From a virus (lineage: Duplodnaviria > Heunggongvirae > Uroviricota > Caudoviricetes): a stretch of DNA of 64,000 nt. Each line of letters opens with the position of its first letter. Position 1 is the stretch's first letter. The DNA is taken from the IMG/VR virus record IMGVR_UViG_3300002834_000024, positions 64,001 through 128,000 of that record. One strand, written 5' to 3'. The notes below the pieces were generated by a model. The model did no database searches, had not been told where the DNA came from, and saw nothing but the letters and a program-made list of their open reading frames with translations. Both the position numbers and the translations under genes were made by a program. Positions 1-14,215 of the stretch are shown one piece after another.

Positions 1-879
1 GACTTAACAAAACCAACTGTTGATCAAGGTTTGACAATTGACGGTTATATTGGTATTGATCCATTAACTGTTATTGATAATGCTGCTTTCTTGGTAACTT
101 GGGCGCAATATGATAGTCTTGAACTTGAAACTGAAATCGCAGAGGTTTCTTTCAAAATTGAAGGTGTTACAATCGCTGTTGAATCAAGAAAATTACGTGC
201 AACATGGTCTCCTGAATTAGCACAGGATGTTGCTGCTTTCCATAATATTGATGCCGAAGCAGAATTAACCGCTTTATTATCAGAGCAAGTAGCAGCTGAA
301 TTGGATCGTGAAATTCTTCGTGATTTAAGACACGCATCAGCTTGGCAATTACGTTGGGATGTGAATGGTTGGAGACGTATGGCTTCATTCTCTACCAACT
401 ATACCCAAAAAGACTGGAATCAAGAATTGATTACTTGTATTAACAAAATCAGTGCGCAAATCCATAAAGCTACATTGATGGGTGGAGCTAACTTTATCGT
501 TGTTTCCCCAGAGGTTTCGGCTGTATTTGATAACCTTGAATATTTCCACGCTACAAATGCCGCTCCAGAAGAAGATCAATACTCATTAGGTATTGAAAAA
601 ATTGGAACATTACAAGGACGTTACCAAACCTATCGTGATCCATATAGCCCTCACTGGTCTGTATTGATTGGTCATAAAGGAAAATCTATGTTGGACACTG
701 GCTACATCTACGCACCTTATGTACCATTACAATTAACTCCGACTATCTATAATCAATTTAACTTTGCGCCTGTTAAGGGAATTATGACAAGGTATGCCAA
801 AAAAGTTGTTAATAACAAATTTTACGGACAAGTTAGAGTAGACGGTTTAACTGTATGGAATGTAAATGAGTTCAGATAA
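1..879 (+). CDS. gp23: Major capsid protein, T4 gp23-like (C-terminal part; frame is open from position 1)
   Basis: Motifs SRKLRATWSPELAQD, IDAEAELTALLSEQVAAELDREI, GYIYAPYVPLQ and GIMTRYA are hallmark gp23-family segments. Confidence 0.96.
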   Translation, partial: DLTKPTVDQGLTIDGYIGIDPLTVIDNAAFLVTWAQYDSLELETEIAEVSFKIEGVTIAVESRKLRATWSPELAQDVAAFHNIDAEAELTALLSEQVAAELDREILRDLRHASAWQLRWDVNGWRRMASFSTNYTQKDWNQELITCINKISAQIHKATLMGGANFIVVSPEVSAVFDNLEYFHATNAAPEEDQYSLGIEKIGTLQGRYQTYRDPYSPHWSVLIGHKGKSMLDTGYIYAPYVPLQLTPTIYNQFNFAPVKGIMTRYAKKVVNNKFYGQVRVDGLTVWNVNEFR

Positions 880-900
880 TCAATAGATTATTTATAAATT

Positions 901-936
901 AAAAAACCCAAGTCAATTAAATGGCTTGGGTTTTTT
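901..936. terminator. Bidirectional intrinsic terminator between the convergent capsid and portal genes
   Basis: aaaaaacccaagtca-attaaa-tggcttgggtttttt stem-loop with A/T tracts on both sides. Confidence 0.85.
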
Positions 937-957
937 GTTTTCATAAGATGTTAATTT

Positions 958-2907
958 TTATTCAACTGGTACTTCTTCTGTTTGTTTATCAATCCAATCT
1001 TCAATAGTAGACATCATTTTTTCATATTCTTCATTAATTAATGATTTTCCTGAATATGTTGGAACAGTTTGTGTAAGTTTATTTTCAATTTTTTCAAGTA
1101 TTAATTTACCCTTTTGATTTTTACTTTCACCCATTGGTGCTGCTTCGGTTTCTCCTCCAGCTTCGGTTTCAGCACCTTCACCACCAACATCAGCACCTTC
1201 CATTCCACCGCCAAAATCATCCATTCCCATATCACCACCACCGAAGCCTCCTCCGCCACCAGATCCACCACCTGATGCTTGACCAATATCAGTAACAGTA
1301 TAATCATATTGAGCATTTGGATCACCATATATTAAATCAACTTTATCAAACATTCCTGTTCTTTTGATAATTTGTTGGGTTAATATTAATTCTTGTGAAA
1401 TAACTTTTTCTAATCTTAAATCAGATAATATTTCATCAATTTCTTGGTCAGAAAATTTCATTATATCTTTAAGTGCCTTTTTCCATGAGTAAATTGGTAA
1501 ACCATCATCAGTAGCTGCTGATACTGCATCTTTAACAGCCAATACTTTCTTCTGTAATTCTTCCACACGCATTATCTCGGCTTGTGTGGAAGGATTGTTC
1601 ATTGTGATAGTAAAGTTGTTTAGGTCATCTTTAAAACCTAATAAAAAGAGATGAATAATAGCAATATTATTTAACTCCATTATAGCACATTGTTGAACCC
1701 TATTGATTAATTTTGAAAATCTAATATCAACTAATGACAAATTACGACCTTCGGCTGGGGATGCTTCAAAGTTTAAAAATACTTTGGGTACTCCAAGTGC
1801 TGTTAGCATTTGTAGATGCACATATTCCAACATTTCTTTTAATTTATCCAAATTATTTCCGCTAGCTAATGTTTCAATTTTTGTACCATCTTTTTGACCA
1901 CGTATTGGAATGAATATATCATCAACTGCTGATAAAATATTTTTTGATAAATCTAATTGTCCAGTTTGTGGATCAACTCTTAATGTACGTTTAAAATTAT
2001 TTGCAATATCTTGAATGAAAGCTGGTACATCCGCTGCATCAATTAATCCAACATCAATTTTATAAACAAATCTTTCAAATGCTTTTTCTAAAATATAAAT
2101 TAACATAGCATCTTCCATCATAGTTAATCGTCTCCATTGTTGTCTTGCACCTGCAAGCCATGAACAACCATAGGGTATTGCTATTGTATCATTTAGTAAT
2201 CGGAAATGTGCCATTTGCCATCTCAAATATTTTTGTGAACCAGCAGCTCCAGTCCATTCAAAATATGGGCTTAAATCATCCCCTTTATTTGTACTTTGTC
2301 CTACAACACCATAAGGATATTGATTATTAAATCTTTTGATTTCAACAACTGGCATTTGTTTCCACCCTAATATACCATTTTTTGATGTAACATTAAGTAA
2401 TCTGTAATCATTACCATATTTACACATTGTTCTAATAAGAGGTAATAATTCTAAATGAATTTGCAATCTGTTAACAAATAAATCTTCCAATATTGATTTA
2501 ATTCTTGGTGATGTTGAAAAAATATTTAATAAACTCCCATCTGGCCCAATTGTACATGCTTCATTCGACACAATGTTAAGTGCCTGATATATTTCAGGTC
2601 TTTGTGACATTAATTCAACATCTCTATACATTAAATCAACGAAATTCATATTTCTTGTTTCGTTGATATTAGTTCTCATATTTGAGTTAAACCATTTTCT
2701 ACTTAACCATTTATCTTGTTTAAGTTGAAGTTTTGCATTATCATATTCATTCTTATCTGTTGTTTTTAACAGAATATTAGAATCATAGTTATAAACATTT
2801 GGCGATTGGTTAGATTTTATGTTAGTTGTATATGTACCATTACTCCAACCATTTAATGTTTTATCTAATGATTGGAATATTGTCCATGTGTTTTTATTAG
2901 CTGCCAT
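958..2907 (-). CDS. gp20: Portal protein, T4 gp20-like
   Basis: YGNDY, MAHFRL, PYGCSWL, MEDAMLIY...ERFVYKIDVG, DDIFIP, LTALGVPKVFL and DIRFSKLINRVQ motifs; Gly/acidic C-terminal tail. Confidence 0.93.
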   Translation of the reverse strand: MAANKNTWTIFQSLDKTLNGWSNGTYTTNIKSNQSPNVYNYDSNILLKTTDKNEYDNAKLQLKQDKWLSRKWFNSNMRTNINETRNMNFVDLMYRDVELMSQRPEIYQALNIVSNEACTIGPDGSLLNIFSTSPRIKSILEDLFVNRLQIHLELLPLIRTMCKYGNDYRLLNVTSKNGILGWKQMPVVEIKRFNNQYPYGVVGQSTNKGDDLSPYFEWTGAAGSQKYLRWQMAHFRLLNDTIAIPYGCSWLAGARQQWRRLTMMEDAMLIYILEKAFERFVYKIDVGLIDAADVPAFIQDIANNFKRTLRVDPQTGQLDLSKNILSAVDDIFIPIRGQKDGTKIETLASGNNLDKLKEMLEYVHLQMLTALGVPKVFLNFEASPAEGRNLSLVDIRFSKLINRVQQCAIMELNNIAIIHLFLLGFKDDLNNFTITMNNPSTQAEIMRVEELQKKVLAVKDAVSAATDDGLPIYSWKKALKDIMKFSDQEIDEILSDLRLEKVISQELILTQQIIKRTGMFDKVDLIYGDPNAQYDYTVTDIGQASGGGSGGGGGFGGGDMGMDDFGGGMEGADVGGEGAETEAGGETEAAPMGESKNQKGKLILEKIENKLTQTVPTYSGKSLINEEYEKMMSTIEDWIDKQTEEVPVE

Positions 2908-2928
2908 ATTTGATGATATTTATCTTAG

Positions 2929-2937
2929 TATAAATAT
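2929..2937 (-). promoter_or_regulatory. Putative late promoter (ATATTTATA on the sense strand) upstream of portal
   Basis: Same motif recurs 16-36 nt upstream of several structural genes. Confidence 0.45.
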
Positions 2938-3020
2938 GTAGAATGGATAAAATAAATCAATAATTAAAATCCTTACACTATTTATATGAGGTTAATAGTA
3001 TGTAATGTAATTTTATCATA

Positions 3021-3029
3021 CTATTTATA
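3021..3029 (+). promoter_or_regulatory. Putative late promoter CTATTTATA upstream of the tail sheath (second copy at 2978-2986)
   Basis: Recurrent motif; further copies at 10417, 14224, 33188, 46551 and 49155. Confidence 0.5.
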
Positions 3030-3064
3030 TAAAAGAAATAAATTTAATAATTAAACATAAGATT

Positions 3065-6000
3065 ATGGCATTAACTAATGTAAAGGGACTTCATGTAGCA
3101 CCTGGAATATATCAAAAGGAAACAGAGATCATGCCAGCCAATTCAAGAACAAGTATTACAACACTTGGTCTTGTTGGGGAAACATTAAAAGGTCCTGCTT
3201 TCGCACCGATTTATATACAAAATTGGAGGGATTATGAGGCAACATTTGGTGGTACTTCAACTGAATTATACAAAGGTTCAAAATACCCTCGATATGAACT
3301 TCCTTATATAGCAAGAGATTATTTGGCTGAAAGTAATCAACTAATTGTAACTAGAGTTCTTGGACTTTCTGGTTATCACGCAGGTAAAGCATGGCTTATT
3401 AAAGCTATTGGTAGTGGAAAAGGTGAAAATATGTTAGTTGGTGTTCTTCGTTCAAGAGGACACTATGTAAAAACATTTGGTTCACCACAATTTTCAGATC
3501 AGCCAGTCAAAAGTGGGGATATTGAAAAATATGTACAATACATTGTAGGTAGAGTTGATCAGACAGCAAACAATCCAATTCCAAACAGTGACAGAATTAC
3601 TTATGATGGTAAAAATTATACATTTGGGACAAAATTCTTTGGTACTGACAAACCAACTTACTCGGTAACAGGTAGTAACTTGATTGTATATGGTTATTGT
3701 GGTACAAAATACGAATATGATAAACTTTTGTGGGATGCCGAAGAAGTTTTCATTGGTCCATCAGGACAACCATCAACTAAGTTTACATGCGGTAAATCAG
3801 GTGTTTGGCAAAATGCTCAATTTACAGGAATACCAAGTACACCATCCGATTTGGGTACTTTCAAATTAATTATCAAATTACGTGAAACTGGTGAATATGT
3901 AGAATATACTGTATCATTAAATCCAGGTCAAAAAAATTATATATATAATGTATTAGGCGGAAGAGCTGATGAAGGTAATGCACCTATTTGGGTTGAAGAA
4001 TTGTATGACATTGCTTTCCAACAATTAGTGTATAAAAATGGGGTTGATCCAAAAGATTACATTGAAGGAATTTTATTAAATAGTAGTAATGGTTCTATTG
4101 ACCAAATAGTTGTTACTAATGGTGGTTCTGGATATACAAGACCAATCATAACAATTACCGATCCGAATGGTGTTGCTGCAACTGCTTTTGCAACTATTAA
4201 TCCAGGTGGTGAAATTGATAGTATTGATATTATCAGTGGTGGTATTGGATACACACATCCAACTGTTGTATTTACTGATCCGTATGGTATTGGAGCTGCT
4301 GCAACCGCAACAACAGATATTAATGGTGTAATTGTTGCAATCAATATGTTGACACCAGGTTCTGGATATACAAATCCAACAGTAACCATTGTTGATGAAC
4401 ATATTAGTATGGTAACAGTTGTAAATGGTGGTTCTGGATATACAAGACCAACTGTTATGATAAGTGATCCAACTGGTTCTGGTGCTGCTGTTGAAGCCGT
4501 TATTGATGGTTTAGCTGGTACAATATCTGAAATTACAGTTGCAACACCAGGTTCTGGATATACACATCCTGCTGTAACAATTACTGATGGTGGAACAGGA
4601 ACAGGCGCAATTGCAACTGCTGTATTAGGAGCTCCGATTGCTTCAATTAATGTAATTAGACGTGGTTTAGGATATACAACTGGTAATACAGATGTGGTTA
4701 TTACAGATGAAACAGGAACAGGTGCAATTGCTGTTGCCGTTCTTGGTAATCCTATTCAATCCTTATCATTGCCTGTAGGAACTGGATTTACAAATCCAAC
4801 AATATCATTCTCTGACCCAAGTGGTGGTGGAAATGGTGCAATAGCGACTGCTGTTGTTGTAGCTGGTGTTGTTACATCAATAAATGTTTCAAGACCAGGT
4901 AATGGTTATTCATCAACCGCAGTGGCAACAATTTCTGATCCAGTTGCTCCTTCAGAAACATTAACTATAACATTTGATACAAGTATTACACAAATATCAT
5001 CAATTGATGTTACAAATGGTGGTACTGGTTATATAAATCCTGTTATCAGAATTGTTGATAATGGATTCCCCCCAACAGTAAGTCAAGATGCTGTTGTTTC
5101 TTCGACATTAGGTGTTGCTGATGTGGTTGCTAAAATAGTTGTAAATAATCCTGGTGCAAATTATACATCACCAACTGTAACTATTACAGATGCAGGTGTA
5201 GGTACAGGTGCAACAGCGAGTGCAACAGTAGCAACTGGTACAATTACAGCAATTAATGTTGTTAATAATGGTGGGGTTGGTTATACAAATCCAACTGTTA
5301 TGATACAAGACCTTACAGGAAGTGGCGCAATAGCAACCGCAATGATTGAAGGTACAGGTGCAACAGCAAGTGCAACAGCAAAACCAACAGGTGTAATTAC
5401 TGCTATCACAGTATCTAATAAGGGAGCTGGTTATACAAATCCAGTAATTGATATTACTGACGAACCTGTTATTACACATATTGATGTTGTAACCGCTGGA
5501 TTTGGATACGTTTCACCAACAGTTGCAATATCTGATCCAACAGGAACGGGTGCGACAGCAATAGCACAAATAGATGGTGCTGGTAGAATTATTGGTATTA
5601 CAGTAGGAAATCCAGGTACAAATTATACAAATCCAACTGTTGTTATTCAAGACCAATTTGGTACAGGTGCAACTGCAATAGCAAATGTTGCTGGTGGTAC
5701 AGGTGCGACTGCCTATGCTAATATTGACATGAAACAAATTCGTGTTATAGATGGGGGAACTGGTTATCCAACAATTCGTATTACTGACAGTGCTGTCCCA
5801 GCAACTGGATATGGTGCAATTGCAATATTACAAATGGACGAAAATGGTATTTTACCAAACGCTATAATTACTAATGGCGGAACTGGATATACTTCCCCAG
5901 TGGCAACAATTCAAAGTATGGTCGGTTCAGGTGCAACTGCAACTGTAACAATGGACGGTGCTGGTGTTATCACAGGTATTACAATCAATGGTGGTTCAAC

Positions 6001-8563
6001 AGCAAATGGATATAGTAGAGTAACAATAAATGATTCTACTGGTGCGGGTGCAACAGCAATTGCTACAATAGATGCAAGTGGTGCAATCAACTCAATTGAA
6101 GTTACAAACAGTGGAAGTGGATATACAAGTCCTGTTGTTGCTTTCGGTGTTAATTCAACAGCTAAAGCTGAATTTTTGTACAATGGATTAACAGAACAAG
6201 GTGAATTTGAGGTTATTATTTCTAAATTTAGACCAGTTTTTAGTATATTGGAATTACCAAATCAAGCATTGTTAAGAAGTAACTTGAATGAAAGATACTT
6301 ATATTCATATAATGAATCAATCCAAACAGACTATATTGAAGAAATTGTTACAATTGTAACAGCTCCAAGATACCAAAAAACAACAACAAAGATTGGAAAA
6401 ACATTAGGACCAGACGATGATGGTAAAATATTAGTAGTTAAAGAAGATGTAGATAACAGTGGTAGAAAAACTTATAACTATCATTACATTATTACATCAA
6501 CAAGTAATGGTGTTACAACTGATGTTGAAGAAGAAAGATTATTAAACAAAGGATTTGTTGGCGGATTTTCACCAAAATATGTTTTCGTAAATAATCAAAA
6601 TTTATTCTATGAGATTGAAACATTTGTACCAACTGCTGAATACCCATTTAATCATATAGTTCAACGTGTTGTTGGTGATATGAGTGATTATAAAGAACAA
6701 TTTAGATTTGCTTCAACACCATGGATTGTATCAGAAATGATTGGTACATTTGCAAATAATGAAGTAAAACGTTTGTTCAGATTCCATACAATAAGTGATG
6801 GTGACACTGCTAATACTTTATTTAAGGTTTCTATCATCAATATTGATCCAGCAAACTTAACATTTGATGTTGTTATCCGTAACTTCTATGATTCAGATGC
6901 AAGTATAACAGTAATGGAACAATTTAGAAGATGTAATCTTAATCCATCATCCCCAAATTATATTTTAAATAGAATTGGCGACTTCTATAATTCAACAGCA
7001 CAAACATCAAGATATGTAACAGTTGAAGTTGCTGATGACGAAACAATTAGACATAGAGTACCTTGCGGATTTTTAGGAATACCTGTTCGTGATTTAGGTA
7101 TTGGTTTTAACAAACCCCAATTAGCCTATAACACAGCTGTTTATCCTGAAATAAAAGAAAGAAGACAATATTTTGGATATTCTGATATTTTAGGAATTGA
7201 TACAGATTGTTTAAGTTATAAAGGTAGAACAACTTATACAGATGGTCTATATACAGATGGTTTCCATTTGGATAGTAGAGTAAATGATTGTACAACAGTT
7301 GTAGATGGCGAAAATCCAGGCGTTAATTGTACTTCAATTGACCCAGACCAATATGTAAAAGGTGTTTATACATGGCAAACCCCATCTGTTGATACACTTG
7401 GATTTGGTGGTGAATCTCCACAAATAACCAGTGCTGAAGATGTTGTTGGTACTATATATGAAAATGGGCAAATGCGTAAATTTACTGTAGCGTTCTATGG
7501 CGGATTTGATGCTTGGGATCCATATCGTGCATCTCGTACAACACAAGATGATTTTAAAGCAAGTCGTTATAAAGGTAAAATAAACTCAAATACAGGCGAA
7601 GGAGAACACTTTGATGTTGTAAGAGATGATGTATGGGGATTTGGACAAACAGCCATTACAAGCGATTTCTATGCGTTCTGGGCTGGCTATTTAACTATGG
7701 CTAATCCATCTGAAACTCCGATTAATGTATTTGCTTCTCCAGGTATTGACTATATCAATGATACATTACTTGCAAAAGAAGCTATTGAAATCATTGAAAC
7801 TGATATTAATCAACGTGCAATATACATTATAACAACACCTGATAAACCATTTGGTGCTGATGATATGGTAAGTTCGATGTTTACATCTGATGATGTTGTT
7901 GCCAATTTAGATGCTGTTGAAATTGATAGTAGTTATACAGCAACATATTATCCATGGATGAGATATTGGGATCAAAATGAACAAAAAACCATTTTCTTAC
8001 CTGCAACAAGAGATATTGTTCGTTCAATTGCACAAATAGATAATACAAGTTACGCATGGTATGCACCAGCTGGTGATAGTCGTGGTAGAGTTAATTGTTT
8101 ATCAGCAAGAACTAACTTGAAGGTGTATGATGAAGATACATTATATGCTGGTAGAATCAATCCAGTTAAAACGTTTGCTCGTGATGGAGTATATGCTTGG
8201 GGACAGAAAAATATGAAAATATCATATTACCAAGACAGAGAGGCTTTAACAAGAATTGGAGTAAGACGTATGATGATAAGAATTAAAGATTTGGTTGCAA
8301 GAGCAAACAGAAACTTAATTTTTACACCAAATGATGCAACAACAAAAAACAAATTCATTTCAAATACATCTGCAATATTGAACGATGTTAGAAGTAACAG
8401 GGGTATTACGGATTATAGAATAGAAGTTGATGATAGTATTGAAGCAAGAGAAGCAAGAACACTTCCTGCAAAAATATGGATTAAACCAATTAACTTACTT
8501 GAATATATTGAAATCGAATGGGTTATTACACCAGAAGGTGTTGAACTTTCAAGTTTGACTTAA
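3065..8563 (+). CDS. gp18: Tail sheath protein, T4 gp18-like, with a large internal repeat insertion
   Basis: N-terminal APGIYQKETE...LGLVGETLKGPAF; C-terminal ATYYPW, WYAPAG..RG, GRINPV, WGQK, RIGVRRMM and IKPINLLEYIEIEW are typical of sheath proteins. Confidence 0.95.
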   Translation: MALTNVKGLHVAPGIYQKETEIMPANSRTSITTLGLVGETLKGPAFAPIYIQNWRDYEATFGGTSTELYKGSKYPRYELPYIARDYLAESNQLIVTRVLGLSGYHAGKAWLIKAIGSGKGENMLVGVLRSRGHYVKTFGSPQFSDQPVKSGDIEKYVQYIVGRVDQTANNPIPNSDRITYDGKNYTFGTKFFGTDKPTYSVTGSNLIVYGYCGTKYEYDKLLWDAEEVFIGPSGQPSTKFTCGKSGVWQNAQFTGIPSTPSDLGTFKLIIKLRETGEYVEYTVSLNPGQKNYIYNVLGGRADEGNAPIWVEELYDIAFQQLVYKNGVDPKDYIEGILLNSSNGSIDQIVVTNGGSGYTRPIITITDPNGVAATAFATINPGGEIDSIDIISGGIGYTHPTVVFTDPYGIGAAATATTDINGVIVAINMLTPGSGYTNPTVTIVDEHISMVTVVNGGSGYTRPTVMISDPTGSGAAVEAVIDGLAGTISEITVATPGSGYTHPAVTITDGGTGTGAIATAVLGAPIASINVIRRGLGYTTGNTDVVITDETGTGAIAVAVLGNPIQSLSLPVGTGFTNPTISFSDPSGGGNGAIATAVVVAGVVTSINVSRPGNGYSSTAVATISDPVAPSETLTITFDTSITQISSIDVTNGGTGYINPVIRIVDNGFPPTVSQDAVVSSTLGVADVVAKIVVNNPGANYTSPTVTITDAGVGTGATASATVATGTITAINVVNNGGVGYTNPTVMIQDLTGSGAIATAMIEGTGATASATAKPTGVITAITVSNKGAGYTNPVIDITDEPVITHIDVVTAGFGYVSPTVAISDPTGTGATAIAQIDGAGRIIGITVGNPGTNYTNPTVVIQDQFGTGATAIANVAGGTGATAYANIDMKQIRVIDGGTGYPTIRITDSAVPATGYGAIAILQMDENGILPNAIITNGGTGYTSPVATIQSMVGSGATATVTMDGAGVITGITINGGSTANGYSRVTINDSTGAGATAIATIDASGAINSIEVTNSGSGYTSPVVAFGVNSTAKAEFLYNGLTEQGEFEVIISKFRPVFSILELPNQALLRSNLNERYLYSYNESIQTDYIEEIVTIVTAPRYQKTTTKIGKTLGPDDDGKILVVKEDVDNSGRKTYNYHYIITSTSNGVTTDVEEERLLNKGFVGGFSPKYVFVNNQNLFYEIETFVPTAEYPFNHIVQRVVGDMSDYKEQFRFASTPWIVSEMIGTFANNEVKRLFRFHTISDGDTANTLFKVSIINIDPANLTFDVVIRNFYDSDASITVMEQFRRCNLNPSSPNYILNRIGDFYNSTAQTSRYVTVEVADDETIRHRVPCGFLGIPVRDLGIGFNKPQLAYNTAVYPEIKERRQYFGYSDILGIDTDCLSYKGRTTYTDGLYTDGFHLDSRVNDCTTVVDGENPGVNCTSIDPDQYVKGVYTWQTPSVDTLGFGGESPQITSAEDVVGTIYENGQMRKFTVAFYGGFDAWDPYRASRTTQDDFKASRYKGKINSNTGEGEHFDVVRDDVWGFGQTAITSDFYAFWAGYLTMANPSETPINVFASPGIDYINDTLLAKEAIEIIETDINQRAIYIITTPDKPFGADDMVSSMFTSDDVVANLDAVEIDSSYTATYYPWMRYWDQNEQKTIFLPATRDIVRSIAQIDNTSYAWYAPAGDSRGRVNCLSARTNLKVYDEDTLYAGRINPVKTFARDGVYAWGQKNMKISYYQDREALTRIGVRRMMIRIKDLVARANRNLIFTPNDATTKNKFISNTSAILNDVRSNRGITDYRIEVDDSIEAREARTLPAKIWIKPINLLEYIEIEWVITPEGVELSSLT
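4097..6147 (+). repeat. About 18 copies of a ~35-40 aa repeat (I..I.V.NGG.GYT.P.V.I.DP.G.GA.A.A) within the sheath
   Basis: I counted 18 G-[YF]/N-Y cores; ggtggttctggatatacaagacca is identical at 4121 and 4427. Confidence 0.92.
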
Positions 8564-8581
8564 TCACAACTTGACATAATG

Positions 8582-8618
8582 AAAAAATGGGTGAATTTTT
8601 AACGTTCACCCATTTTTT
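8582..8618. terminator. Bidirectional intrinsic terminator
   Basis: Perfect aaaaaatgggtgaa / ttcacccatttttt stem between convergent genes. Confidence 0.88.
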
Positions 8619-8624
8619 TTTATG

Positions 8625-9785
8625 TTATTCACTTTCCATTATTACTAATCTATTCCATTCATTTACAATATATGGTTGAAGTTCATCACCATACCAACTA
8701 ATACTAATTTTATCTTTTGATACACCATATTTTTCATTTAATATTTTAGCAACAGCTCTTGCTCGTTTTTCTGACAAAGTATAATTATATTTAGGATTAC
8801 CTGTTTCTCTATCCGCATAACCAGTAATTTTAATTGGTACATTATTTTGTATAGCAAATTTAGCCATATCAAATATATTAGTCATCTGATTTGCATCAAT
8901 TATCGAACTATTTAATTTGAATACAACAATTTTGTAAATCATTTCCCTTTCTATATTATTCACAATTGCACTGTTTTCTGGACATTCGGGACAATATTTT
9001 GGTCTTTTACTTAATTCATCATTTTGACTACGAAGATTATTAATCTCATTATTCAAATCATTTAACAAATAATAATCCATTGATTCAATAACTTGAAAAT
9101 TTGTTTTACCTAATTTAAAATTCAAACCAAACATTGCAGATATTAGTCTATCTTCTTCATGGTGCATATCAACCCGATTAAATTGTTCATTTAACATTGT
9201 ATATTGACCTTCAAGATATAAATCAACACGTTCACTTAATCGAATTGGTATTAATAACCCCATATTCAATGTTGGGGATTCTGACCTTTTTATTTTTCGA
9301 TCACCAAATACTTTTTCTGGCCTATGTGCATATCCACCACCGACAAAAGGTATAATTCGCATTATTCTACGTTCATCATATCTACCAAGACAATTTGTAA
9401 TATCAAACATGAAGTCTAAATGTACATTTCCATATGTCAATTGTCTTATACTTAAATTCTTTTCTAAATCGTATTCAAAATTTTTAAATACACCAGCATC
9501 ATATTTTAAACGATTTGCAATATATGGATTAAACCATTTTCCGAAAGACACACTACCTAATGAACCAAGACGATCTTCAAACGCAGCATCACCATTAAAA
9601 TCTCCAAGATAAATATTTCCACCAAAACCAACAGATAGAAATGTATTATCAAATACTCTGTTTTTAACAAAACTGTTTCGATAACCAGATCCAATACTTA
9701 ATCCACTAAATGGTGCATACTCCTGTGCCGACATATTCATAAAAACGACACTACATAACAATAATAATAAAACTCTAAATTTCAT
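8625..9785 (-). CDS. OmpA-family outer membrane protein (signal peptide, beta-barrel, CPECP linker, OmpA C-terminal peptidoglycan-binding domain), Bacteroidales type
   Basis: Signal peptide; GSVSFGKWFNPY..RL; CPECPE; ITGYADRETG...YNYTLSEKRARAVA...WNR. Confidence 0.9.
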   Translation of the reverse strand: MKFRVLLLLLCSVVFMNMSAQEYAPFSGLSIGSGYRNSFVKNRVFDNTFLSVGFGGNIYLGDFNGDAAFEDRLGSLGSVSFGKWFNPYIANRLKYDAGVFKNFEYDLEKNLSIRQLTYGNVHLDFMFDITNCLGRYDERRIMRIIPFVGGGYAHRPEKVFGDRKIKRSESPTLNMGLLIPIRLSERVDLYLEGQYTMLNEQFNRVDMHHEEDRLISAMFGLNFKLGKTNFQVIESMDYYLLNDLNNEINNLRSQNDELSKRPKYCPECPENSAIVNNIEREMIYKIVVFKLNSSIIDANQMTNIFDMAKFAIQNNVPIKITGYADRETGNPKYNYTLSEKRARAVAKILNEKYGVSKDKISISWYGDELQPYIVNEWNRLVIMESE

Positions 9786-9826
9786 AATAATTAAATTTTA
9801 AATGATTTGCGATAAATATAATAGTT

Positions 9827-10372
9827 TTAATTTCCATTTCCTAAAAAACACCTTATTTTATTAATTAAAACTTTGGGACTGTTTTCATCATTCTTATGAA
9901 CTATTGTGTTTAAAGAATAATAATTAGAAAAATTATTTTTCATATTATCCAATTTTTTGATATGATCTGGATCTGAATAGATAATTGTTTTCATCCAAAT
10001 TTCTTTTTCTTCTTGTTTTCTTTGAGTATCATCTGGTGGTAATGAAAGATTACAACAAATTCGTTCTAAAAATGTAATTCCATGTATTGGAAAATACTTA
10101 CTATAATCAATTGGATCCATACCATTTGGATTTATATTTAGTCCCAATATTATTAAATCAAAATCACCACAATATTTTTCCCAATATGTCAGTGCTGATG
10201 TATAACTTCTACTATGTTTTATATCATAACCTGTACTATGTTCTAATTTTTCTTTTAAAACATAATCATCTTCAATTAACAATATTCTTATCTTCCCAAT
10301 ATCTGCTTTTGATAATACTTCATCAATAAAGCCTTGAAAATCATTTGATAAATCCATATAAGATAATTTCAT
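9827..10372 (-). CDS. Response-regulator receiver-like (pseudo-receiver) protein
   Basis: RILLIEDD, DLIILG (Gly at the usual phosphoacceptor Asp position), GITFLERI, IIYS. Confidence 0.6.
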   Translation of the reverse strand: MKLSYMDLSNDFQGFIDEVLSKADIGKIRILLIEDDYVLKEKLEHSTGYDIKHSRSYTSALTYWEKYCGDFDLIILGLNINPNGMDPIDYSKYFPIHGITFLERICCNLSLPPDDTQRKQEEKEIWMKTIIYSDPDHIKKLDNMKNNFSNYYSLNTIVHKNDENSPKVLINKIRCFLGNGN

Positions 10373-10443
10373 ACAAATATATCAATTTTTATTTAATTCT
10401 AAAATATTGGTTATTTCTATTTATAGATATATAATATCATATA

Positions 10444-12252
10444 ATGGCTAATTTACAAGTAATAAGAACCGAAGTTAATACATACGATCATTGGGTGTTG
10501 GATAGAAAACATTATTATGATTTTTTCATATCAAGAGAACCACATTATGCGGATATTGATATGAATCAAGATTGTGTCGCAGTTACAATTGATCCAAATG
10601 AACCAGAATGTATTGGTGAAGATGGGGAAACATTATACAGTTCAACTATATGGAAAGATGCGGTTAATACAGGTATTGAATTACCTGATTGGGGGTTTTG
10701 TTCGATTGATAATGGTTATACAAAAATTGATTGGAATACAGATGATTTGTTGGATATATTCACAAATACCACATTAACAATTCCAGAAAATGATTTACGA
10801 TTTTATATGAAACCAGTTGAAGGTTTTTATTATTGTGATCCAAAAATTGATTACAGTACATCTATTGAAGAAGAAAATGGTCAAAAATTTATCAAAGCTG
10901 ATGGCGGTTTTTATCAAGGGTTTTATAAATTATTTTTACCTGAATATACTGGTCAGAAATATCAAACAATGTATAATCGTCCTGAACAGGTTGAATCATA
11001 TGAATTTATTATTCGCCCAAGAAATATTACAAAGGATAATACTTTGAACTATTATTTTCCAGAAAATAGCGGATTTTTCTTTTATAAAGGAACACGTGCT
11101 GAAAATAAATGGTGGTATTATTCAAACAAGATTAATATGGAAAACTTTGAATATTTAAAGAAAACTATTTTAGAAAATGGGTGGTGTAATTATGATGAAT
11201 TATTAGACCCAGATGAATTAGCAAAAGCAAAATCTATTTATGAAAGTTTATACACATCATCTGGTGTAATATTAAACACACCAAACTTTACTGAATTTGA
11301 ATCAAACAATAAATATTTATTTTTTAACCGAACATGTTGTGGTTATCTTGTTAGAGATGAAGATAAACCAGAAAGTGTAATAGTTGGTTATCAAGAAAAA
11401 AACAAAAATCTGAATTATTATTTATTGTTTAATCGCAGTATTGATTGGAACACAGGACAACCATTGGGACTAAGAGTGAAAGATTTGGAACCAACTGTTG
11501 GTTGTTGTACATTTTCTTATTGGTCATATTTCAGTAAACTATATAGATGTGATCCGTATAAACGATGGAATTTTATTGACAAACCATTACAAAACTTACC
11601 AGATGAATTTAAAGATATTGACATATATGATAATCAATATCATGAAATATTTTCTGATACTTTTAATAATGCAATGGGATTTAGGATAACCCCAAAAGGA
11701 CAATTAGGTTATCGGATAAACATACAAAATTGTGATGATGATAGAAATGAAAATCCAACTAAACTATTAGAAGAATATTCATCAGAAAATATTATTAATT
11801 GGGATCAATGGAATCATATTGTTGTTAAAATAGTTTATGATATTCCAATTAAAAATCCAGAATGTAGTACACAACCATCACGAACTGGTACAATTTCATT
11901 TTATGTTAATGGGTTTTTAAAATTTATATCAAAAAAATATAAAGAACCAATGTTTAAAGAACTGGCAGAATATTTTGAAAAACAAGAAGGTGTACCATTT
12001 AATATGAGTTTAATGGGCGGTTCACAAGGGTTATTGGAAACAATATTGTCTAATAATCCACAAGATTATGACAGATATATTTTTCCAATAGAAAGATTTT
12101 TTACAGGTACATTAATGGGGGATTTAAGATATTTTAGGATAGGTGAATGTAATATTGGATTAAATCAAATCAGAAACATGTATATTAATTTTAGACAAAT
12201 TATACCATTGCCACCCCCAATGTTTACAGTTCAAATAAATAATTTAACATAA
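10444..12252 (+). CDS. Putative structural protein with a C-terminal LamG/concanavalin-like domain
   Basis: WNHIVVKI...ISFYVNGFLK...MGDLRYFRI pattern; late-type motif 18 nt upstream. Confidence 0.5.
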   Translation: MANLQVIRTEVNTYDHWVLDRKHYYDFFISREPHYADIDMNQDCVAVTIDPNEPECIGEDGETLYSSTIWKDAVNTGIELPDWGFCSIDNGYTKIDWNTDDLLDIFTNTTLTIPENDLRFYMKPVEGFYYCDPKIDYSTSIEEENGQKFIKADGGFYQGFYKLFLPEYTGQKYQTMYNRPEQVESYEFIIRPRNITKDNTLNYYFPENSGFFFYKGTRAENKWWYYSNKINMENFEYLKKTILENGWCNYDELLDPDELAKAKSIYESLYTSSGVILNTPNFTEFESNNKYLFFNRTCCGYLVRDEDKPESVIVGYQEKNKNLNYYLLFNRSIDWNTGQPLGLRVKDLEPTVGCCTFSYWSYFSKLYRCDPYKRWNFIDKPLQNLPDEFKDIDIYDNQYHEIFSDTFNNAMGFRITPKGQLGYRINIQNCDDDRNENPTKLLEEYSSENIINWDQWNHIVVKIVYDIPIKNPECSTQPSRTGTISFYVNGFLKFISKKYKEPMFKELAEYFEKQEGVPFNMSLMGGSQGLLETILSNNPQDYDRYIFPIERFFTGTLMGDLRYFRIGECNIGLNQIRNMYINFRQIIPLPPPMFTVQINNLT

Positions 12253-12301: not shown

Positions 12302-14215
12302 ATGATTTCACAAGAAGAACAAGTAAAAGAATATGTTAAATGTTTTGAAGATAAAAGTAGAATATACTTTATAGAAAATTATTTTAAAACATACGATGCA
12401 ACTATTGAACGAGTTGTACCATTCAAATTATTTCCTAAACAAAAAGAATATCTTTTAAATTGTGCTAACAATTCCAACAATATTGTTTTAAAACCAAGAC
12501 AATCAGGATATTCAACTGTAACATGTGCTTATATTGCAGCAAGTCTTGTATTTGCTGGAATGGATAACCATGAAGTTGTATTAATAATTGCAAATAAATT
12601 AGATATGTCACAAGATGACTTAGCTAAATTAAAGGATTTTTTATTACAAGTTCCCCGATGGTTTTGGGGCGAAGATTATTATCATCCAGAAGAAAATGCA
12701 CTTAATGATAAAGGGAAAAGAATTAATGATGAAAAAGAAAATTCAATATTTGTCAGAGAAACAATCAAAGAATTAACATTATTTACAGGTACTAAAATGT
12801 ATGCCAGATCGAGTGGTGCAAATGCTTCTCGTGGTATTAGTGCATGTTCTTATTTGTTTTTAGATGAAGCAGCATTTATTGAAAAAGGTTCAAAGGTTGC
12901 AGCAGCAGCTATCCGAACAATGGGTAGTGTTAAAAATAAACATATCTTTATGGTTTCAACACCAAACTTGAAAGATAGTTTATATTATCCAACATATCAT
13001 AATGCACAACTTGGTTTAAACAATTATAAAATTACTTATTTAAAATGGTATTATGATCCACGTTACAATAAAAACTTAAAATGGTATAAGGAATTATTAA
13101 CTACTGATGTTGATGGTAATGAAATCAAAGAAATAATATGGGAAAATGAATCAATTATAGATAAAGTAGGTAATATAAGATACCAACCAGACCGATGGAA
13201 AGAAAAGGAGGGTGATGGGTGGAAAGCAACTTCCCCATGGTTTGTTGAAGAATGTAATAATTCAAACAATGATGCTATTTTAATTGCACAGGAATTACTT
13301 TGTTCATTCATAGGTTCTGGAAATGTGGCTGTTGATCCGAAAGTAGTTGAAATGCAGAAGAACAAAAATGTAACCGACCAATATAAAACAGATCCAATTT
13401 ATGATGATATACGAATATTTAAACCACCAATAACAGGTCATAGATACATATTGGGGGTTGATGTTAGTAGGGGAGATGCTGGTGATAATTCGGCGTTTGA
13501 ACTACTTGATGTTGATGCAATAGATGAATTTGGTATCAAATATATAGAACAAGTTGCAGAATATGAAGGCAAAATGACTGGGGATATTTTGGGCGAATTA
13601 TGTTTTAAATATGGAACACTCTATAATAACGCATTAATAGTTGTTGATTGTATTGGTGGTTATGGAGAATCAACTGTATTAACATTACTTAATTTAGAGT
13701 ATCAAAATCTTTATTATGAAACAGTTCAAAATAAAGATTATATGATTAATTCTCCAAAATTAGAAAAATTTGTTTCAAATGATGAAAAATTACCAGGTTT
13801 CCATGCAAAATCAGCAAGAACATATATGGTTTCCACATTTATTCAAGCATTAAAAAGTAATCTTTTAAGAATTAGAAGTATTAGAGTTATTGGTGAATTA
13901 GAAACATGGGTAATTAAAGCAACAGGCAAAATTGAACATTTATCTGGTTGTCATGATGATACATTAATGAGCATTGCTATGGCAATGTTTGTATATGAAC
14001 ATAACTTTATTAAAATGAAACAACAACAAGAGGCTGATGCTGAAATTCTTAAATCATGGATAACAACATTAAAAGTAAAAGAACCAGAAAAACAGCCAAA
14101 TAATATTGATATTTCACCACATAAAGATAAATATAATATGTTCAAGATATATCGAGGTAATCAATTTACTAACAAAAATCAAAACCCATATTCTTGGTTG
14201 TTTAGTAAAAGATAA
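12302..14215 (+). CDS. gp17: Terminase large subunit, T4 gp17-like
   Basis: KPRQSGYST (Walker A), LFLDEAAFIE (Walker B), MVSTPN, GVDVSRG and HDDTLM (RNase H-like nuclease). Confidence 0.96.
   Translation: MISQEEQVKEYVKCFEDKSRIYFIENYFKTYDATIERVVPFKLFPKQKEYLLNCANNSNNIVLKPRQSGYSTVTCAYIAASLVFAGMDNHEVVLIIANKLDMSQDDLAKLKDFLLQVPRWFWGEDYYHPEENALNDKGKRINDEKENSIFVRETIKELTLFTGTKMYARSSGANASRGISACSYLFLDEAAFIEKGSKVAAAAIRTMGSVKNKHIFMVSTPNLKDSLYYPTYHNAQLGLNNYKITYLKWYYDPRYNKNLKWYKELLTTDVDGNEIKEIIWENESIIDKVGNIRYQPDRWKEKEGDGWKATSPWFVEECNNSNNDAILIAQELLCSFIGSGNVAVDPKVVEMQKNKNVTDQYKTDPIYDDIRIFKPPITGHRYILGVDVSRGDAGDNSAFELLDVDAIDEFGIKYIEQVAEYEGKMTGDILGELCFKYGTLYNNALIVVDCIGGYGESTVLTLLNLEYQNLYYETVQNKDYMINSPKLEKFVSNDEKLPGFHAKSARTYMVSTFIQALKSNLLRIRSIRVIGELETWVIKATGKIEHLSGCHDDTLMSIAMAMFVYEHNFIKMKQQQEADAEILKSWITTLKVKEPEKQPNNIDISPHKDKYNMFKIYRGNQFTNKNQNPYSWLFSKR

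Follow-up and report, generated by a model that had tools for sequence, protein, structure and literature searches.

An 18-repeat array inserted in one outer loop of the tail sheath protein of a large uncultured phage, probably displayed as branched barrel clusters

The stretch of DNA analyzed here (the window, 64,000 nucleotides (nt)) corresponds to bases 64,001-128,000 of the 274,786-bp IMG/VR record IMGVR_UViG_3300002834_000024, for which CheckV estimates a completeness of 74%. The record belongs to an uncultured phage of ~350 kb, and its tail sheath protein, P0001 (1832 amino acids (aa)), falls into a protein cluster found on a 347-kb contig. P0001 carries an array of 18 short repeats inserted into a single loop of its non-core part, and this array is maintained under purifying selection. 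We propose that the ~700-aa derived insertion, placed in a flexible loop of the outer sheath, would fold two repeats at a time into small six-stranded barrels of the T4 gp18 domain I type, whose adjacent termini would allow a barrel to be inserted into loops, including those of its own kind. A split outer barrel would host four further barrels in one half and one in the other, and the outer face of the tail would thus bear, on each of the several hundred subunits, a branched, compact cluster of about 72 kDa, while the core that faces the tube and the machinery of contraction would stay as they are. The clusters may form a multivalent, low-affinity binding surface along the tail, directed at polysaccharide or other surface material of the host or its environment, or at the phage’s own fibres. 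Taken as a whole, this explanation seems to us rather more probable than its alternatives together.

P0001 is the one contractile tail sheath protein of this phage. The PHROG 23 family ’tail sheath’ matched residues 1545-1827 (E 2.4e-35), residues 442-655 of T4 gp18 aligned with residues 1619-1832 (E 4e-18), and PF17482 (Phage_sheath_1C) matched residues 1726-1821 with 26.2 bits in hmmscan, just below the 26.9 cut-off, and with 31.7 bits, above it, in the genome search. The C-terminal domain of the sheath superfamily (PF17482 / PF04984) is recognizable in the protein, and the gene sits among T4-type myovirus genes, its neighbours encoding a T4-type major head protein, a T4-type portal, the large terminase and baseplate-like proteins. 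A homolog search revealed no second sheath gene in the record, and none in two relatives whose genomes, 360 and 367 kb long, are complete and bear terminal repeats. The fold was assessed on P0005, an insert-free relative 68% identical to P0001, which was modelled with confidence (predicted local distance difference test (pLDDT) 88, predicted template modelling score (pTM) 0.88). Over residues 28-1150, this model superposed on the solved sheaths of KP1 (Z 36.6, 451 residues), pyocin R2 (Z 32.5), P1 (Z about 32) and T4 (Z 27.6); P0005 serves here as a proxy for P0001, both flanks of which align with it, and its N- and C-terminal parts form the core fold of the solved sheaths. An earlier note, made from the sequence alone, had called the open reading frame (ORF) a giant sheath of 1832 aa and set it against roughly 660 aa for T4 gp18. 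The family matches of the flanks and the P0005 fold bear this out; gp18 has 659 aa, and a fairer baseline is provided by the insert-free family members of ~1080-1190 aa.

The array is a derived insertion in one flexible loop of the non-core part of the sheath. Relatives were collected by searching 5.8 billion proteins with the C-terminal 793 residues of P0001, which returned hundreds of proteins of ~1080-1190 aa, many of them encoded on 330-360-kb contigs. Residues 339-1036 of P0001 are missing from the aligned P0005, P0006, P0008, P0012 and P0013, the flanks of the array site are contiguous in P0006 and P0012, and the closest insert-free relatives (1130-1190 aa) have a short or disordered loop exactly at this position. 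In the P0005 model the array site (site A) is residues 352-367, the only internal loop of low confidence. Minimal sheaths match only the N-terminal ~80 and the C-terminal ~300 residues of P0005; residues ~115-790 form an additional, non-core domain, and all the insertion sites described here lie deep inside it. The insertion of the repeats in the middle of the sheath, as the earlier note had described it, was thus recovered by the alignment with insert-free homologs that it had named as a check: the array is absent from them and its flanks adjoin. Among the matches listed, only P0003 (1834 aa, 86% identical to P0001), P0004 (1995 aa, 75% identical) and the fragment P0002 bear the array, and these 1832-1995-aa sheaths are the longest among the best 120 and the best 150 matches listed from two very large collections. 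A query with the single protein found no close relative in IMG/VR, and a query with an alignment succeeded.

The gene and its parts are laid out as follows, in positions of the window:

3065..8563, plus strand: tail sheath gene of P0001, 1832 aa, stop codon included (ORF, PHROG 23, gp18 match, PF17482).
3065..4078, plus strand: N-terminal sheath part, residues 1-338, a conserved core segment followed by beta-rich outer domain(s); aligns full-length with P0005, P0006 and P0012.
4088..6184, plus strand: inserted array, residues 342-1040, 18 GxGY repeats read as ~9 six-stranded barrels (repeat hidden Markov model (HMM)).
4088..4324, plus strand: putative outer-level barrel 1, repeats 342-381 and 381-420 (HMM, nesting parse).
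4322..4402, plus strand: interrupted repeat 1, strands 1-2, residues 420-446, ending in ...TVTIVDEH (HMM positions 1-27 only; period 24).
4394..5356, plus strand: residues 444-764, eight full repeats in a nested run, taken as four barrels; contains the pair 448-523 superposed on gp18 domain I (HMM, nesting parse).
5345..5383, plus strand: extra strand 3, residues 761-773, GTGATASATAK, proposed closer of interrupted repeat 1 (HMM positions 28-37 only; period 51).
5387..5470, plus strand: interrupted repeat 2, strands 1-2, residues 775-802 (HMM, period).
5462..5698, plus strand: residues 800-878, two full repeats in a nested run, taken as one barrel (HMM, nesting parse).
5687..5734, plus strand: extra strand 3, residues 875-890, GGTGATAYANID, proposed closer of interrupted repeat 2 (HMM, period, nesting parse).
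5720..6184, plus strand: putative outer-level barrels, repeats 886-926, 927-966, 966-1004 and 1005-1040 (HMM, nesting parse).
6185..7684, plus strand: C-side outer non-core domains, residues 1041-1540 (alignment with relatives).
6506-6508, plus strand: site C, after residue 1148 (beta-hairpin loop 483-486 of the P0005 model).
6614-6616, plus strand: site B, after residue 1184 (beta-hairpin loop 518-522 of the P0005 model).
7685..8560, plus strand: conserved C-terminal sheath core, residues 1541-1832 (PHROG 23, PF17482 and gp18 matches).

In the P0005 model, the equivalent of the N-terminal sheath part (residues 31-340) is confident. Residues 342-1040 of P0001 are tiled end to end by three-strand repeats of ~40 aa, which were delimited with the repeat HMM, seeded on a G-x-G-Y/F motif and matching each repeat with E 1e-10 to 1e-20. 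The 18 repeats comprise 16 full 40-aa copies and two short ones reduced to strands 1-2, and the HMM additionally found two fragments consisting of strand 3. The boundaries given by the earlier note (4097-6147, ~680 aa, ~18 repeats) agree with this result to within one repeat. No domain other than the repeat was found in the array: Pfam has no family for the repeat itself, revealed no Ig, FN3 or Big domain in the array, and no intein, Hint or homing-endonuclease domain in the insert, which consists wholly of repeats.

The repeats of P0001 share a mean identity of 40% at the protein level, and Tandem Repeats Finder detected no repeat at the DNA level in nt 1-12000. Because the copies have diverged this far and nothing is seen in the DNA, the array is an old protein-level array rather than a recent or assembly-made duplication. 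Recent internal amplification was considered and rejected, as the repeats, with ~40% mutual identity, are on average closer to those of P0382, the only other repeat gene product in this genome (3073 aa, about 50 copies). The gene of P0382 (G000:C1:177673-186894, equal to L009:5674-14895) lies ~110 kb from the sheath gene, outside the window, and its array stands between distinct N- and C-terminal domains without Pfam match. The guanine-plus-cytosine (GC) content is raised in the sheath repeats (0.39 vs about 0.29), the excess coming from Gly, Ala and Thr codons; at third codon positions (GC3) it is 0.10, similarly low to the 0.15-0.16 of the rest of the gene. A foreign origin of the array, suggested by the raised GC, was rejected, since GC3 and the Gly/Ala/Thr codons account for the excess.

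The array is maintained under purifying selection. P0001 and P0003 each have 18 repeats in collinear arrays, orthologous repeat by repeat, and P0004, from a third sample, has kept the array with extra divergent units. Between P0001 and P0003, the ratio of nonsynonymous to synonymous substitution rates (dN/dS) is 0.195 in the repeats and 0.06-0.12 in three body regions, at a synonymous rate (dS) of about 0.7-0.9. Misassembly and junk sequence are excluded because P0003 and P0004, from other samples, keep the array and because dN/dS is low. An artefact of assembly or gene calling, by which the sheath would have been fused in silico with part of the 3073-aa repeat gene, could have come about if an assembler was misled by the same repeat filling a gene ~110 kb away. 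Yet the repeats, about 40-46% identical as protein, are unrepeated as DNA, both halves of the sheath flank the array in frame, and P0003 and P0004 share the layout with orthologous repeats, so that we regard this explanation as extremely improbable. It is also very unlikely, though less so, that the insert is not displayed, being removed after translation or belonging to a long form that is minor or non-functional: the phage has a single sheath gene, whose reading frame is unbroken in each of three independent assemblies, the insert evolves under purifying selection, and it contains no intein, Hint or endonuclease domain.

Two further sites in the sheath have received the same repeat. P0014 carries two copies at site C, after the equivalent of residue 1148, and P0007, P0009, P0010 and P0011 carry about four repeats at site B, after residue 1184. 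In a tree of the conserved C-terminal 620 residues of the sheath proteins, the site A group and the site B group are each supported at 100/100, and P0014 stands beside the insert-free P0013. All three insert groups belong to one clade together with the insert-free P0005; three other sheaths lacking the insert, P0006, P0012 and P0008, branch outside that clade. Because the insertion sites differ, the repeat has been inserted three times independently in sister lineages. Neither the GxGY repeat nor a Pfam-recognizable insert was seen in the wider family’s remaining long sheaths (1390-1590 aa); among them, P0129, P0134, P0143 and P0242 (1555-1593 aa) have large inserts of another kind.

Structure prediction of the monomer, which the earlier note had suggested, succeeded for the body on P0005; for the array it gave only a moderate model (mean pLDDT 61, pTM 0.25), with several repeats at 70-90. 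This model covers residues 330-1050, was built from an alignment of register-shifted windows from giant repeat proteins, and has three strands per repeat. It was compared exhaustively with 48,161 PDB chains using VIA-align. The first rank of the 48,161 was taken by T4 gp18 (3fo8_D; Z 7.0, root-mean-square deviation 2.9 A, 76 residues), the second and third by T4 gp18 (3foa_A, Z 6.6) and the KP1 sheath (9ev2_S1, Z 6.1). In all three cases gp18 residues 99-188 were placed on model residues 119-194, i.e., P0001 residues 448-523, which are exactly two repeats, and the local pLDDT there is about 70. FN3 and Ig chains gave fold matches of no more than Z 3.5-5.2, all confined to a part of the model with low confidence (residues 256-341). 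A Foldseek search of the array model against the PDB returned nothing at E <= 0.001, with weak strings of sandwich domains (S-layer, protocadherins), and a single-repeat profile searched against PDB sequences gave chance matches only.

A weak signal from sequence comparison points in the same direction as the fold matches. T4 gp18 domain I contains two degenerate copies of the turn, TISTPGSNY at residues 102-110 and KINIPTGKNY at residues 142-151, 41 residues apart. No other part of gp18 is matched better by the repeat HMM than these two copies, and both GxxY turns are in register. A two-repeat profile scored 11.6 bits against gp18 domain I, equalled by 1 in 2000 composition-preserving shuffles. 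The sheath of the cultured cyanomyovirus S-CAM3 has four copies, which scored 25.9 bits (0 of 2000 shuffles; shuffle maximum 3.7), and its repeat wording, AGTGYTVGDVLTV, is intermediate between PGSNYAVGDKITV of T4 and GGSGYTRPTVMIS of P0001. In T4, domain I is a six-stranded barrel and itself an insertion domain, protruding outward without inter-subunit contacts; its binding partners are the baseplate and the long tail fibres in their retracted state (PMC3004832). We consider it likely that two repeats make up one barrel of the gp18 domain I type and that the two families are related, although by the sequence criterion of PF22639 (Gp18_dom_I) the repeats would not count as members.

The spacing of the repeats suggests how such barrels may be arranged. 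The periods between repeat starts cluster at 38-39, with a minor peak at 23-25 and a tail at 47-52; a period of 23-25 was taken to mean that strand 3 is absent (’open’), and one of 47-52 that one extra strand 3 is present (’close’). Read in this way, P0001 consists of two repeats; open, eight repeats, close; open, two repeats, close; and four repeats. Short repeats and extra strand-3 segments are balanced, and every run is even, as it must be if each barrel is a repeat pair. The paralogous P0382 is the more stringent case: eight of its repeats are interrupted, and it has eight extra strands, four of them in one uninterrupted run. Its parse is nested up to six deep, with 2, 4, 2, 4, 2, 2, 4 and 2 enclosed repeats, all even, and the grammar is matched by 0.022% of random orders. 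The junction wording ...TVTIVDEHI... is common to P0001 and P0382. The length-based parse is reliable for P0001, P0003 and P0382 and noisy for P0004, P0266 and distant proteins; an HMM of strand 3 alone was too weak to tokenize the repeats.

With moderate support from this grammar, the array would be nested rather than linear and would comprise ~9 barrels, four of them on the outer level, with the split barrel hosting four plus one. The outer-level barrels are read as residues 342-420; a split barrel of 420-446 plus 761-773 and 775-802 plus 875-890; 886-966; and 966-1040. Adjacent termini would be consistent with the contiguous flanks in relatives and with the use of three loops, and the nested grammar needs them. 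Because the array and its nested runs would each start and end at one point, and because a barrel type that is an insertion domain in gp18 should have adjacent termini, a compact branched cluster of ~9 barrels is more likely than an extended fibre. The earlier note had envisaged a long arm on every subunit and a dense bristle coat; adjacent array ends, repeats pairing into insertion-type barrels and the nesting of these barrels speak against it, and the tail is probably coated with knobby barrel clusters, not long bristles, which would make it look thick.

These clusters would lie on the outside of the sheath, because additional sheath domains are located away from the tube in every sheath studied (PMC9230969; PMC3004832). 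The earlier note’s condition that the insert occupy an outward-facing domain agrees with site A, a disordered loop of the P0005 model in the non-core part, which faces outward in all solved sheaths (PMC9230969; PMC3004832). By rough arithmetic from T4 lattice values (PMC3004832), the mass of the clusters could be accommodated as an extra shell a few nanometres thick, even on the contracted sheath.

The likeliest role, we infer, would be that of a binding surface, followed by lateral stabilization and then by fibre docking. For binding we point to the wide occurrence of the repeat in extracellular proteins, to its independent gains in surface loops and to its faster evolution than the body. As the array has no other domain, its role would have to reside in the barrels or in their bulk. 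The barrel clusters could instead be structural, neighbours packing together to cement or stiffen the sheath of a very large virion in its extended state, or to set the threshold of contraction, with no external binding. Extra sheath domains have been proposed as tail stabilizers, e.g., domain II of phage 812 (PMC9230969), the array is under purifying selection with its repeat number kept between P0001 and P0003, and ~72 kDa per subunit might be crowded enough for clusters to touch. However, T4 domain I makes no inter-subunit contacts (PMC3004832), the complete close relatives of 360-367 kb lack the array or have only 2-4 repeats, placed in other loops, the body evolves more slowly than the repeats (dN/dS 0.06-0.12 vs 0.195), and the repeat content differs between P0001 and P0004, unlike what a precisely fitted lattice contact would show. 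On balance we find a purely structural role unlikely.

A somewhat lower probability still is given to the barrels as docking sites for the phage’s own fibres or whiskers, multiplied along the tail. Mutations in T4 domain I, including G106S in the PGSNY turn, affect fibre retraction (PMC3004832), and by its computed position this turn of gp18 corresponds to the GxGY motif; moreover, some ~350-kb phages such as phAPEC6 have fibres along the sheath (PMC7247149). Against docking, no partner was identified, T4 manages with one barrel per subunit, the repeat is also present in extracellular proteins of cells, for which there are no fibres to be held, and the phAPEC6 fibres occur at three rings only and are not attributed to the sheath protein (PMC7247149).

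Several points weigh against our preferred reading of outward-facing gp18-type barrel clusters with a binding role. The Z of 7.0 is within the tool’s range for best chance matches, the array model is moderate (pLDDT 61, pTM 0.25) and poor at the proposed closing strands, and the structural claims as a whole rest on predictions of moderate quality. PF22639, which recognizes T4 gp18 residues 96-188 with E 5e-37, has no match in P0001 residues 342-640 at E <= 1. Aligning the repeat profile with gp18 in hhalign gave E 0.045 and a probability of 1%, the best alignment, at residues 101-153, being of low probability. In P0001 taken alone the nesting grammar is statistically weak, 6.9% of random orders being equal to it. 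The outward orientation comes from the sheath topology in the literature, not from a measured ring model, and the sequence has no pointer to a particular ligand.

The nearest known system is T4 gp18, which belongs to the same family as P0001: the C-terminal core matches, and the P0005 model reaches Z 27.6-36.6 to T4-type sheaths. It is likewise built by insertion of domain within domain, the most exposed one being one six-stranded barrel (residues 98-188; PDB 3FO8/3FOA; PF22639). T4 has this one barrel where P0001 would have about nine, nested and missed by PF22639, and the non-core body of P0001, about 800 aa without the array, is far larger than gp18 domains I plus II. P0001 also resembles the ’type 3’ multi-domain sheaths of large and jumbo phages (Evseev et al. 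2022, PMC9230969) in having a conserved N- and C-terminal core and extra domains away from the tube. In multi-domain sheaths, size rises with genome size, and adhesion or stabilization has been proposed for the added parts (PMC9230969). The extra domains of ’type 3’ are mostly Ig-like sandwiches, five or more at most (PMC9230969), whereas P0001 has a homogeneous array of 18 repeats in one loop. The array of P0001 is an extreme form of this known decoration of sheaths with outer domains.

The sheath of S-CAM3 (807 aa, NC_031906, L096:1579-4002) offers a cultured counterpart, with its four tandem copies at residues ~210-350, in the non-core part. It differs from P0001 in having only four repeats (two barrels), with no sign of nesting, and in belonging to a different subfamily, with about 27% core identity. 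The sheaths of S-PRM1, S-CAM9 and S-CAM7 gave no clear match to the repeat, and PF22639 did not match the cyanophage sheaths. Judged from these proteins, sheath decoration with the GxGY module varies among T4-like cyanophages as well. ’Hairy’ phages of ~350 kb (phAPEC6, CBB, Rak2-like) have tail appendages thought to aid host interaction (PMC7247149); their filaments are located at three annular positions and on the capsid and are not assigned to the 97-kDa sheath protein, whereas in P0001 the decoration is part of every subunit. The literature searched contained no account of a sheath bearing such a long and uniform array of repeats, of a link between this repeat and gp18 domain I, or of the nesting grammar.

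Beyond sheaths, giant extracellular proteins of bacteria and archaea commonly carry the repeat, and a search restricted to long proteins recovered it from many giant proteins. Carriers include phage proteins with Gp8 or ’stabilisation’ domains, multicopper-oxidase surface proteins labelled Methanoperedens, and an FN3 protein of a Geobacter relative. The PHROG families with the repeat comprise virion structural, baseplate wedge, tail fibre and head closure proteins, and, together with P0382, these matches support the earlier note’s association of the repeat with baseplate and fibre proteins. P0382, the cyanophage structural and baseplate proteins and the Methanoperedens proteins share with P0001 the same ~40-aa repeat, and P0382 also shares its syntax of short repeats and extra strands. 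In the giant repeat proteins the arrays stand between distinct terminal domains and may act as stalks, whereas the array of P0001 is an insertion within an internal loop. An ortholog of P0382, P0266 (3161 aa), is encoded on the contig of P0004. Two genes upstream of P0382 lies an HNH/homing-endonuclease-like gene (L009:3788-4729, plus strand; PHROG 559, E 7e-57). The complete relatives G001 (367 kb, record of L013) and G002 (360 kb, record of L016) have a few copies each, scattered over several large ORFs of 829-2339 aa. Because the copies of the relatives are scattered rather than concentrated in two genes, the repeat module is suggested to move between structural genes within this phage group. 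A tblastn search of the array against cultured-phage records gave five weak cyanophage matches, probably limited by the low-complexity filter, and a feature search of the ESM Atlas returned only low-score viral hypothetical clusters.

The sheath gene is surrounded in the window by the following genes:

1-879, plus strand: T4-type major head protein gene.
958-2907, minus strand: T4-type portal gene (PF07230, E 1.6e-58).
8625-10372, minus strand: OmpA-domain protein (386 aa, PF00691, E 8.5e-14) and a 181-aa ORF without family matches.
12302-14215: large terminase gene.

The portal gene, on the opposite strand, is located between the major head protein and sheath genes, and no tail tube gene adjoining the sheath gene was recognized among the neighbours. 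This arrangement is unlike the gp18-gp19-gp20 gene order of T4-like phages. The OmpA gene and the 181-aa ORF follow the sheath gene directly on the opposite strand. The pair looks like a local insertion (moron), because in the close relative L092 the sheath gene is followed directly by the homolog of the next plus-strand gene.

Together, our results describe a single-copy sheath enlarged by about 60% through an addition to one loop. Sheath proteins are known to carry optional outer domains, and the independent gains at other loops argue that phages of this group benefit from a decorated tail surface. For engineered display on sheaths or contractile injection systems, site A and the two other loops offer natural permissive positions. 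An un-named, widespread GxGY repeat is tentatively tied to a solved structure, that of T4 gp18 domain I, and a grammar of barrels within barrels predicts giant proteins that would be branched, not linear. More speculatively, and with a good deal of doubt, we hypothesize that the sheath could act as a binding organelle, the whole tail adhering multivalently to host capsule or gut material, and that the self-inserting barrel may be a general building block of branched surfaces in phages and cells.

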